IMG/VR virus record: IMGVR_UViG_2606217110_000003
From: a virus
Taxonomy: Duplodnaviria; Heunggongvirae; Uroviricota; Caudoviricetes
Length of the DNA: 11,135 bases
Reading direction: 5' to 3' (one strand)
The position numbers and the translations under genes are program-made. Under the pieces are notes generated by a model that was given only the letters and a program-made list of their open reading frames with translations, was not told the origin of the DNA and searched no databases. Position 1 is the stretch's first letter. The number at the start of each line of letters is the position of its first letter. This document shows positions 4,160 through 11,135 of this stretch, piece after piece.

Positions 4160-4488
4160 CAGTTCACCACCTGTTCAAACTCTGCGCTGAACTCAACACG
4201 CAGCATACTGACCCGCGACGACCATTTTGCGCAGGTCACCTTTATCTGCCGCCACTCATAAGGCGGCGTCCACAGAAAGGCTTTCCAGCCCCCGTGCTCT
4301 TCCAGAAACGACTCCAGCGCCGTGGCCTCCCAACGGGGGACAGAAAGCGTCACGCTGTACGTTTTCAGGTTGGCATTCAGCCCGGCAGGCGCTCGCTGGG
4401 AATAGCCATCACCAAAGCGCACCTTTCTTACAGAAGGGGCCGAAGCCACATCCATACCGGGTTTCACTTTCCAGCGGAAGGTTTTCAT
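4159..4488 (-). CDS. M: Tail tip protein M
   Basis: 109-aa ORF (MKTFRWKVKPGMDVASAPSVRKVRFGDGYSQ...), recognisably lambda gpM; ATGA overlap with the H stop. Confidence 0.93.
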   Translation of the reverse strand: MKTFRWKVKPGMDVASAPSVRKVRFGDGYSQRAPAGLNANLKTYSVTLSVPRWEATALESFLEEHGGWKAFLWTPPYEWRQIKVTCAKWSSRVSMLRVEFSAEFEQVVN

Positions 4489-7058
4489 CGTCCACCTCCG
4501 GAGAACAGACCACCATCGCGCATCTGCCCGGTCACAACATCCATTGCCGCCTTACGGGCTACGTCATAAACAGCCTTCAGCGCCTGTGGCCCTATCTGAC
4601 CGTTCGTGCCGTCGTTGTTAATCACCACATGGTTATTCTGCTCAAACCCGAACCCCTGAACGCCGCATTTGCGCCGGACTTCCGGTGCCACCGACATAAC
4701 CGCCGGTGGCATAGCCGCGCATCAGCCGGTAGAGATTCCCCACGCCAATCCGGCTGGTTGCCTCCTTCGTGAAGACAAATTCACCACGGTGAACAATCCC
4801 CGCTGGCTCATATTTGCCGCCGGTTCCCGTAAATCCTCCGGTTGCAAAATGGAATTTCGCCGCAGCTGCCTGAATGGCTGTACCGCCTGACGCGGATGCG
4901 CCGCCACCAACAGCCCCGCCAATAGCGCTGCCGATACTCCCGACAATCCCCACCATTGCCTGCTTAAGCAGAATTTCTGTCATCATGGACAGCACGGAAC
5001 GGGTGAAGCTGCGCCAGTTCTGCTCACTGCCGGTCAGCATCGCCGCCATATTCTGTGCAATACCATCAAAGGTCTGCGTGGCTGCACTTTTTACCTGCAA
5101 CATACTGTCCGTGGCGCTCTCTTCCCACTCACTCCAGCCTGACCTGAGGCCTGCCATCCAGCTCCCGCGAAGCTGGTCTTCAGCCGCCCAGGTCTTTTTC
5201 TGCTCTGACATGACGTTATTCAGCGCCAGCGGATTATCGCCATACTCCTCCTTCAGGCGCTGTTCCGTGGCTTCCCGCGCTGCCTGCCGGTCAGTCAGCC
5301 CCCGGCTTTTCGCATCAATGGCGGCCCGTTTTGCCCGTTGCTGCTGTGCAAATTTATCCGCCTGCTGCGCCAGTTCGTTCAGCCGTTTCTGGTGTTCAAC
5401 CTTATCGCCAAGTTCAGCCAGCTGACGTTTGTACTCCAGCGTCTCTTTTTCATGAGCAAGAAGAGATTTTTCCTCGTACGGACAGCTGGCGACGTTGTGC
5501 CGCCTCCTCCAGCACCGCAAACTGACTTTCTGCCTTCCACAAATCCCGGCGCTGCTGGCTGATTTTCTCATTCGCTCCGCATGCTGCTCAAGCATCCGGA
5601 GTTCAGCCTGAAACGCAAGAAGAGCAGCATGAGCACGATCTTCCTGACGATCGCCCGCAGACACCTTCACGCCGGACTGTTTCGGCTTTTTCAGCGTCGA
5701 TTCATAATCCTTTTTCGCCGCCGCCATCAGCGTGTTGTAATCCGCCTGCAGGATTTTCCCGTCTTTCAGTGCCTTGTTCAGTTCTTCCTGACGGGCGGTA
5801 TATTTCTCCAGCGGTGTCTGCAGCCGTTCGTAAGCCTTCTGCGCCTCTTCGGTATATTTCAGCCGTGATGCCTCAGATTCGGCCCAGTCCTTTGCTGCCA
5901 TCTCTCTGGCCTTTTCAAGATCGGCCAGCAACATCGCGACTGAAAGCCCAAGATGCGCATTCGCTCTGTCTTCCCATGCTCCACGGAGATTGGCAAGAAA
6001 TGCTGAGGTTTTACCGCGCCGGTGGCTCCGGCTCTCATACCACTGCCATTTCTTGTCCGCTTCATAAAAAGCCTCTGCCTTAAGCAGCATATCAGCGAGG
6101 AATCAGGACGACCAATATCCAGCACCGCATCCCACATGGATTTGAAGGCCCGCGCTGTCCTGTCTGCCCAGGTCTCCAGCGTGCCCATGTTCTCTTTCAG
6201 GCGGCGGGTCTGGTCATCAAACCCCTTCGTCGCGGCCTCGTTCGCCGCCTGCAATGCCCCGGCTTCATCGCCGGAACGCTGCAACTGAGCAACATACGCA
6301 ATCTGCTCCGCCGTCACGTTATGGAACTGGCGTGCCATCGCTGTCAGCCCTGACGTCGGGTCTGTGGTCAGCTTCCCGAAGGCTTCAGCGACCTTGTCCA
6401 CCTCCACGCCGGATGCAGAGGAGAAACGCGCCACACTCTGGCTGATGGATGCAATCTGAGCCTCACCGCTTACCCCCGCCTTAACCAGTGCACTGAGTGA
6501 CTCGCTGGTCTGGTTAAACGTCAGCCCTGCCGCCTGCCCGGCTCTGGACAGGACCAGCATACGATCTGCCGTCAGTCCCGCCTGATTGCCGGAAAGGACC
6601 AGCGTTTTGTTGAAATCGGACAGGGTTGAGTCCCCCTGATACCAGGCATACGCCAGCGCACCGGTCGCCACCGCCAGCGAGGTGGCCCCGACCATCGGCA
6701 GGGTGATCGCACCGGCAAGCCCCCTGAACATGGGGATCATCCCGCCGAAGGAGTCCTTCACCTGACCACCCTGTTGCAGCAGGATCAGCCACGGACTTTG
6801 CCCGCCTGCAAGCTGCGTGGCCACGTCGGTGAACTGTGCAGGCAGCATACGCATGGCAGCTTTATACTGCCCGACGGAAATCCCCGCTTTCTGTGCAGCC
6901 AGCGCCTGTCGGCTCAGCGACTGTTCAACGACTGCCGCTGTTTTTTTCGCATCACTTTCCGTACCGGAAAAATGACGCCTGACTCTGGCCATCTGCTCGT
7001 CAAATCTGGCCGCATCCAGACTTAAATCAACGACCAGATCGCCTACCGGTTCAGCCAT
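4485..7058 (-). pseudogene. H: Tail tape-measure gene H with interrupted reading frame (frameshifted pseudogene or sequencing error)
   Basis: The N-terminal ~320 codons (track ORF 5859..7058, MAEPVGDLVVDLSLDAARFDEQ...DIGRPD) and the last ~65 codons (track ORF 4485..4712, ...FEQNNHVVINNDGTNGQIGP...LFSGGGR) share one frame. The middle ~1.4 kb (track ORF 4642..6090, ...SRLKYTEEAQKAYERLQTPLEK...) is in another. Frame transitions lie near 6088-6102 and 4646-4690. Total span 2574 nt is a multiple of 3. Confidence 0.75.
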
Positions 7059-7485
7059 ACCGGACTCCTCCTGCGATCCCTTCTGATACTGTCATCAGCA
7101 TTACGTCATCCTCCGTCATGTCCGCCACATCCGGGGAAGCGGGGATAACTTCATTCCCGTCCGGGCCAAAGCGGACACCTCCGGCAAGCCCTGCCGCTTT
7201 CTGCATCAGCACATCATCTTCAGGCTCTTCGTCAGCCTCGCGCCGGTTCAGCAGACTGAAATCCAGCGGATGCATATCCGGATCGCTGAAAAACAGGCTG
7301 AGCACGGTGTACGTCAGCCCGGAAAAGTGCATATCCAGCAGAACATCATGAAAATAATGGGTACTGTAAAAGCGGTGCCAGTCGGCATACTCCGTGGATG
7401 ACATCCCGGCAAGCATGGCACGCCAGTCGGGTCGCCCCATCTCACGCGCCAGTTTCAGGGCAAAACTCAGCTCACCGTCGAACAC
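7051..7485 (-). CDS. T: Tail assembly chaperone T segment, expected to be expressed only as the G-T fusion via -1 frameshift
   Basis: 144-codon ORF in the -1 frame relative to G (..FDGELSFALKLAREMGRPDWRAM...), recognisably lambda gpT; it has no RBS or ATG of its own and starts inside the G 3' end; its stop overlaps the H start. Confidence 0.85.
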   Translation of the reverse strand: MFDGELSFALKLAREMGRPDWRAMLAGMSSTEYADWHRFYSTHYFHDVLLDMHFSGLTYTVLSLFFSDPDMHPLDFSLLNRREADEEPEDDVLMQKAAGLAGGVRFGPDGNEVIPASPDVADMTEDDVMLMTVSEGIAGGVRYG

Positions 7486-7889
7486 TTTCCCGCAGAAACA
7501 GGCTCTGCTGGCCCGGCGTCATCTGCCTGTTCAGGTGCATCATTCACAACAAACTCAGACATACCGGACAGACGCATTACCACATTTTCAGCCTGAGCAA
7601 TTGCCTCTGTGGGCCAGGTGGTAAGCACTTCCTGCTCAATTTGTTTAACGGCTTCATTCATGGACGGCATCTTTGTCTTCTGCGGATGGTTATGCCACAG
7701 GGACATCGCCACCAGAAAAGCACCGGTTCTGACGAGATCTTCCACGCTCACCTGTCGATTGAGACTGGCTCCCGCCTGTTCTGCCTGTCGTTTCAGCAGG
7801 GCGAGATGCTCAATTCGCTGCAGGGCTGACAGTTCAGAAAGCGTGACGGTCACACCGTTATATTCAAATGATTCGGTTTTCAGGAACAT
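7467..7889 (-). CDS. G: Tail assembly chaperone G
   Basis: 140-aa ORF (MFLKTESFEYNGVTVTLSELSALQRIEHLALLKRQ...SAGKCSTVS), recognisably lambda gpG. Confidence 0.93.
   Translation of the reverse strand: MFLKTESFEYNGVTVTLSELSALQRIEHLALLKRQAEQAGASLNRQVSVEDLVRTGAFLVAMSLWHNHPQKTKMPSMNEAVKQIEQEVLTTWPTEAIAQAENVVMRLSGMSEFVVNDAPEQADDAGPAEPVSAGKCSTVS
7495..7501 (-). other. Programmed -1 ribosomal frameshift slippery heptamer G GGA AAG (G to G-T fusion)
   Basis: Minus strand reads GCG GGA AAG TGT TCG ACG GTG AGC TGA (..AGKCSTVS stop) in the G frame; slipping -1 at GGGAAAG gives GGG AAA GTG TTC GAC GGT GAG CTG.. = GKVFDGELSF, the T frame. Confidence 0.85.
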
Positions 7890-10436: not shown

Positions 10437-10960
<524 letters not shown>

Positions 10961-10961
10961 G

Positions 10962-11135
<174 letters not shown>

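Follow-up and report, generated by a model that had tools for sequence, protein, structure and literature searches.

The gene product H of phage lambda (gpH; NP_040595; PF06791 TMP_2 and PF09718 Tape_meas_lam_C) is the tail length tape-measure protein, and the gene H considered here lies in the same position, between T and M. Unlike lambda gpH, H as deposited is split over three frames, has 34 codons in a fourth register and blends two allele classes. The window, that is the whole stretch of DNA analyzed, is the entire draft contig JNMR01000066.1 (11,135 bp; assembly GCA_000700445.1) of E. coli 3-267-03_S4_C2, a commensal strain recovered from a child in Tanzania (ST5285, phylogroup B1, O163:H19, 185 contigs; sample entry SRSS568333 in Table S1 of PMC6222053). 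Isolates in that study were taken as single colonies, and the genome was sequenced on an Illumina HiSeq 2000 with 100-bp reads; the draft was made by a short-read assembler of 2014, MaSuRCA 2.3.2, which uses the Celera Assembler (PMC6222053). The study holds no clonal sister isolate that could serve as a replicate, the child's other isolates all being of other sequence types (PMC6222053).

H occupies 4485..7058 on the minus strand and has 92-96% DNA identity to H of lambdoid phages. Precomputed Pfam matches on its fragments (TMP_2 and Tape_meas_lam_C), together with the DNA alignment to H of NC_001416, identified it as a gpH homolog, and comparison of the contig with annotated relatives confirmed a lambda-type tail order in which H lies between the G/T chaperone genes and M-L-K-I-J. 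A single uninterrupted ORF of about 853-866 codons was not found. Instead, H consists of three ORFs on the minus strand, namely ORF 1 (5859-7058; 399 aa, the N-terminal fragment), ORF 2 (4642-6090; 482 aa, or 419 aa in the gene call of the public record) and ORF 3 (4485-4712, from the ORF list), plus a locally shifted stretch. We attribute this interruption to the assembly rather than to the organism. Each of the three fragments is known from this one contig alone among 15 billion proteins. They have been deposited as KDU21983, KDU21984 (= WP_248841555.1) and KDU21985, one of them with a RefSeq non-redundant accession even though that protein is probably an artefact.

Several observations concern the surroundings of H. 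The programmed -1 frameshift heptamer of lambda G-T, GGGAAAG, is present at 7485-7491 (minus strand) in the G/T overlap, therefore the chaperone genes look normal. An Rfam search of the window for RNA elements gave no match. The contig ends with the last 230 nt of IS621 on one side (10906-11135; IS110 family, within the major capsid gene E) and inside J on the other, indicating that it is bounded by repeats. The IS621-E junction shows 100% identity over 256 nt with E. coli MB06102, and two complete genomes, CFSAN064035 and Z1323HEC0393, give the same two-piece match including the IS621 end, so the same insertion is likely there. Since the insertion is common to MB06102 and likely to these two genomes, it looks inherited and marks a defective prophage lineage. 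On a larger scale the contig is a mosaic, in which E-FI (10905-10236) is near-identical to the IS621-bearing prophage of MB06102 while E. coli E200086 is the match for the genes from FII to T and for most of H; the mosaic could be natural, or the assembler could have joined two prophages into a chimera. The G protein (7467-7889, 140 aa), which has one private substitution (7641), and the truncated E (10437-10883, 147 aa) are each known only from this contig among 15 billion proteins, and the neighbours of G and of the E fragment were found on tens to thousands of contigs.

ORF 2 translates as ...LEQHAERMRKSASSAGICGRQKVSLRCWRRRHNVASCPYEEKS... (in a longer extract, ...RMLEQHAERMRKSASSAGICGRQKVSLRCWRRRHNVASCPYEEKSLLAHEKE...), and the adjacent frame over 5480-5578 reads GANEKISQQRRDLWKAESQFAVLEEAAQRRQLS. 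The initial annotation took the latter for the lambda gpH sequence, and it is indeed an exact match to lambda gpH residues about 489-521. Pairwise alignment with lambda H (NC_001416) gave two differences, one -1 and one +1. The -1 converts CATGCCGGAGC of lambda H into CATGCGGAGC in the window, between 5578 and 5580, and the +1 converts GCAC-AGGAG of lambda H into GTACGAGGA, the extra base being 5475. Both lesions had been proposed from the sequence, as one nucleotide lost around 5575-5580 and one gained in compensation around 5473-5480, and the alignment bears out each of them at coordinates that had been accurate to within a few bases. The base missing at 5578-5580 and the base extra at 5475 were found against lambda H and about 110 other alleles, and the same two indels were seen against every one of the 72 distinct H alleles of the panel and against three annotated lambdoid phages. 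The 34 out-of-frame codons between them (5476..5577, minus strand) read ERMRKSASSAGICGRQKVSLRCWRRRHNVASCPY and consist of DNA of the lambda-type class B described below, differing from the L009 and L103 alleles in 1-2 places. This stretch has 3 Cys, compared to 0 Cys in the 853 aa of lambda gpH. The alternative frame here is naturally without stop codons.

The frame-B peptide, which the initial annotation had called atypical for a tape-measure protein, did not occur in any intact lambdoid gpH, and parts of it were found only in fragments of visibly error-ridden assemblies. Six such H fragments (P0023, P0038, P0039, P0073, P0102 and P0109) use the same alternative frame (…ERMRKSASSAGICGR…), but enter and leave it at other points and contain many more frameshifts; they stem from chromosome-sized, evidently error-rich assemblies. 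The noisy origin of such public fragments, whose out-of-frame peptides resemble that of the window, would favour random sequencing indel errors of the long-read homopolymer type as the origin of the pair. This suggestion of the initial annotation does not hold for the window, since the platform was Illumina HiSeq with 100-bp reads, which excludes long-read homopolymer error. In addition, the two contexts are a CC dinucleotide (CC to C) and a step from C to A (CA to CGA), neither of which is a homopolymer run, and the other 8.5 kb of the contig contain 0 indels. Random long-read error is already refuted by the platform and by the distribution of indels, and we give random errors practically no chance.

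Outside three zones, H is mostly painted by exact 100-300 nt tracts of known alleles. The backbone, class A, matches H of E. coli E200086 and E200139, and class B, present as short stretches, matches phage 434, L103 and L009 and is of the lambda type. In the region of the finding, A carries a 'type 2' segment, HSGANEK...HEKLSADVLDGQKKSLSIEEKS (also written HSGANEK...AVLHEKLSADVLDGQKKSLSIEEKS), which is 21 nt longer than B. Whereas 5476-5577 is B-type, the DNA downstream of 5475 is A-type, with a pure tract at 5278..5475 (minus strand) of 198 nt identical to H of E200086 and E200139, and over the 80 nt upstream of 5580 the origin changes from A to B or back at intervals of a few bases, with eight switches just upstream of the -1. 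At the -1 site (5578..5580, minus strand), A reads CATAGCGG, B reads CATGCCGG and the window reads CATGCGG. At the +1 site (5475..5478, minus strand), where the two-allele zone gives way to pure A-type DNA, base 5475 is added and the neighbouring T at 5478 is apparently private. The junction strings as deposited are ...GAGCAGCATGCGGAGCGAATGAG... and ...CAGCTGTCCGTACGAGGAAAAATC...; the in-frame strings at the junctions are CATAGCGGAGCG... and ...AGTATCGAGGAAAAATCT for A-type and CATGCCGGAGCG... and ...GCACAGGAGAAATCC for B-type DNA. No single allele is represented by the deposited H. With regard to the idea that the natural allele classes arose through ancient paired frameshifts, B-type DNA read by eye in its other two frames gave no convincing match to the A-type protein. 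Multiplicity of tail modules is common, with up to 6-7 H copies per genome. In E. coli CP148523.1 (L098-L100), three lambdoid prophages on one chromosome encode an identical major tail protein V.

The choice between A and B at conflicting sites follows a fixed order of letters. In the alternation zone (5581..5660, minus strand; 22 informative sites, 8 origin switches), every site is consistent with T > G,C > A on the coding strand. All 22 informative sites between 5660 and 5575 obey this one precedence across the 8 switches of origin, with T chosen over G, C or A at 12 sites, G over A at 5 and C over A at 5. The only orders fitting all 22 sites are TGCA and TCGA, and by Monte Carlo the probability that any order would fit random choices was about 5e-6. 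On the + strand of the contig, the rule places A before C and G, and C and G before T. The agreement of 22 out of 22 sites does not depend on how the alleles are aligned, and the analysis leans on it more than on anything else. In region 2 (245 nt), the best of all 24 orders was TGCA, with 8 violating columns versus 32 for the reverse order; read on the contig + strand, TGCA is simply the alphabetical order A,C,G,T. Natural alleles used as targets under the same treatment gave at least 17 violations. As a control, the other genes of the contig showed no excess of rule-obeying sites.

Because the precedence favours T and disfavours A on one strand, it is asymmetric under complementation, and a rule of this kind works on written letters instead of on the chemistry of DNA. 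Such an order is beyond the reach of recombination, mismatch repair and mutation, whose substrate is the base pair. The observed order does result if an argmax is taken over an array of counts in the index order '-ACGT' and the first entry wins each tie. Programmed frameshifting was considered in passing and is made unnecessary by the letter-order rule. The same asymmetry bears on real ectopic gene conversion between the H genes of two co-resident prophages. Here a short lambda-type patch would have entered a type-2 H; its ends would have been imprecise, mismatch repair would have been patchy, and the outcome would have been tolerated as the prophage was already dead. Such an event would be in line with the lambda-type DNA between the indels, the type 2 DNA in the downstream flank and the natural mosaicism of lambdoid H genes. 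However, recombination joins at shared bases and so leaves clean junctions, and no repair bias favours T over A plus C and G over A on one strand. Moreover, the methyl-directed repair of E. coli works over long tracts, which is incompatible with 8 switches in 80 nt, and we consider gene conversion highly improbable. A related proposal, that the -1/+1 pair is truly chromosomal and arose when a lambda-type patch recombined ectopically, out of register, into a type-2 H between co-resident prophages, is in our judgement quite unlikely. If it were true, paired frameshifts tolerated by the central rod domain would be a source of hypervariable tape-measure segments.

The indels of H can be derived from the same rule. 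In columns that pair a base of one allele with a gap in the other, the base is usually lost, the gap being the winner. With the gap winning, CATAGC-GG (A) over CAT-GCCGG (B) gives CATGCGG, that is the -1 at 5580, through two dropped columns. In the same manner, TCTGCTG-ATATG over GC-GCAGGAGATG gives TCGCTGATATG, the -1 near 6095, and AGGGTATCAGG---TTT over -GCGT-CCGGGAAGTTT gives GGGTTCGGGTTT, the -2 lesion at 4665-4648. The gapped A/B alignments for these three lesion strings were chosen by hand or by an optimiser and are partly fitted. For region 1, the optimiser may only pair or gap two parents, the E200139 allele and the phage 434 allele, and under this restriction all 65 nt were reproduced, including the -1 and the -3, with 21 rule columns, 8 dropped gap columns and 0 violations. 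The fit of region 1 succeeds only with T(G/C)A orders and explains two bases that formerly seemed private. In region 2, the rule removes the 21 extra bases of A, therefore the stretch looks lambda-type, and in the rule-constrained alignment the T at 5478 comes from GTATC of allele A. There are 0 private bases in region 1 and 0 in region 2, meaning that only bases from the two known alleles are present. The +1 at 5475 falls in a column where B has a gap, at the point where the mixed zone ends and A alone continues, and is a base kept opposite a gap. On these partly fitted alignments, the indels thus lie at mutually gapped A/B columns, with the +1 at 5475 going against 'gap wins'. A naive gap-friendly aligner combined with the rule split other tandem mismatches and predicted three deletions that are absent from the window; because it over-predicts deletions, it does not tell exactly where the assembler set its gaps.

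The lesions are unevenly distributed along the contig. Relative to close relatives, window-specific indels are found in H only, with 0 in the other 12 genes (the other 8.5 kb), all of which are intact. H contains five, namely a -1 near 6095, a -3 near 6075, the -1 at 5580, the +1 at 5475 and a net -2 at 4665-4648. Private changes amount to 8.5 per kb in H versus about 0.65 per kb elsewhere, one 13-sequence panel being used for both. Long rule-obeying runs along H occur at 6147-6066, 5707-5478 and 4660-4629, coinciding with the three lesion zones, of which the second spans about 5707-5476, and between them one allele dominates. Tie zone 1 (6066..6147, minus strand) holds the -1 at about 6095 and the -3 at about 6075, which make up the first large frame transition, and tie zone 3 (4629..4665, minus strand) holds the net -2 lesion, which makes the second large frame transition, as well as a run of 17 rule-obeying columns. 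The initial annotation had kept the out-of-frame stretch apart from the two large frame transitions, as a lesion in its own right, but all of them share the three fine-scale two-allele zones and one precedence rule. Since all frameshifts in H fit the two-allele rule, they point to a single cause, a tie-broken consensus, and the cause shared by the -1/+1 pair and both large frame transitions is almost certainly computational rather than mutational.

Three private changes on the minus strand at 5927-5953 stand apart. Positions 5953, 5939 and 5927 have all changed to coding-strand T (Q->H, A->V and Q->L), and lie outside the tie zones; over 5918-5962, the window shares not a single 28-mer with 5,426 complete E. 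coli genomes. We tried the tie rule on these positions, T being its top letter, and rejected it, as contrived alignments were needed and the two parents give no clean account.

The lesion was then sought in other sequence collections. Neither junction as deposited turned up in 5,426 complete E. coli genomes, GTDB representatives or IMG/VR, and the complete E. coli genomes also lack both junctions in their in-frame repaired versions. None of the 28-mers of 5581-5660 was found in the same 5,426 genomes, and two 24-mers from 5581-5660 are absent from IMG/VR, one of them also from JGI metagenomes. Exact protein look-ups and two protein homology searches did not find the same lesion and matched only fragments from noisy assemblies. 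Since the in-frame junctions are absent, the deposited H is not a circulating allele later hit by two point indels, and a circulating mosaic allele of this kind was rejected on the absence of both these junctions and the upstream 28-mers from the 5,426 complete E. coli genomes.

The distribution and the searches also bear on a real compensated frameshift, in which the H of a dead prophage suffered a -1 and, 103 nt away, a +1, in either order, as part of pseudogene decay after the insertion of IS621. The prophage is defective, IS621 having entered gene E at the site that it also occupies in E. coli MB06102, complete genomes often have a truncated or pseudogenised H, and an Illumina consensus is normally accurate for indels, all of which would fit such decay. 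Neutral decay should however be prophage-wide, and the changes are restricted to three short zones of one gene, which contain each of the five indels and almost every private change; neutral decay of a dead prophage was rejected on this ground. A compensated frameshift also leaves unexplained the strand-asymmetric letter order at the 22 sites beside the -1 and the equality of the lesions with the rule consensus of two known alleles. In addition, the in-frame versions of the junctions are also absent in nature, as judged from the 5,426 complete E. coli genomes, the lesion is missing from all collections searched, and the H fragments are unique to this contig. A real compensated frameshift is therefore very unlikely.

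Taken together, it is highly probable that the H stretch is a consensus artefact, a tie-broken merge of two collapsed H copies, and not a bacterial mutation. The read set would have covered two lambdoid H alleles that differ from each other, the likeliest source being two prophages of a single genome. A and B would have been of equal weight in the columns of the zones, with the consensus step breaking ties in a fixed order. The pattern itself is shown by the sequence: both alleles feed the three short zones, conflicting columns are resolved as A, C, G, T on the + strand, the 21 extra bases of A are dropped by gap wins, and the +1 at 5475 arises where the mixed zone closes and A alone runs on. 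As far as can be judged from the sequence, the deposited junctions would be missing from the actual DNA, and most likely both H genes of the bacterium are intact and free of frameshifts. The two alleles might also derive from two strains in the DNA preparation instead of two prophages, as several unrelated E. coli lineages were present in the child and the sequence signature is the same for both sources. The isolates were, however, single colonies, and in a mixed culture many loci would be affected and the assembly would be oversized, whereas the other genes of this contig are clean; we regard two strains as an unlikely source.

The finding is no novel biology, and its biological weight is nil, as the tape-measure genes of this strain are most likely ordinary and intact. 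It matters for data hygiene, in that three artefactual protein records, those made from the H fragments, stand in public databases. Compared with known systems, the -1/+1 pair is like intragenic frameshift suppression by rII +1/-1 pairs, in that opposite indels lie 103 nt apart, the frame is restored and the shifted frame is open. Unlike in rII suppression, the indels are evidenced in the database record alone and H is broken elsewhere anyway, so nothing is being suppressed. The locus is also like the consensus errors that arise from collapsed repeats or paralogues in overlap-layout-consensus assembly, with which it shares a repeat-bounded contig, a two-allele mosaic, errors restricted to sites of difference between the alleles and indels at points where their alignment differs. 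Unlike the usual errors of this kind, its tie-breaking is unusually legible and follows a strict '-', A, C, G, T order on the contig strand. This signature, a fixed letter order in allele switching together with bases dropped at gaps, reveals a merged-paralogue consensus without reads, and other drafts from the same pipeline could be screened for it.
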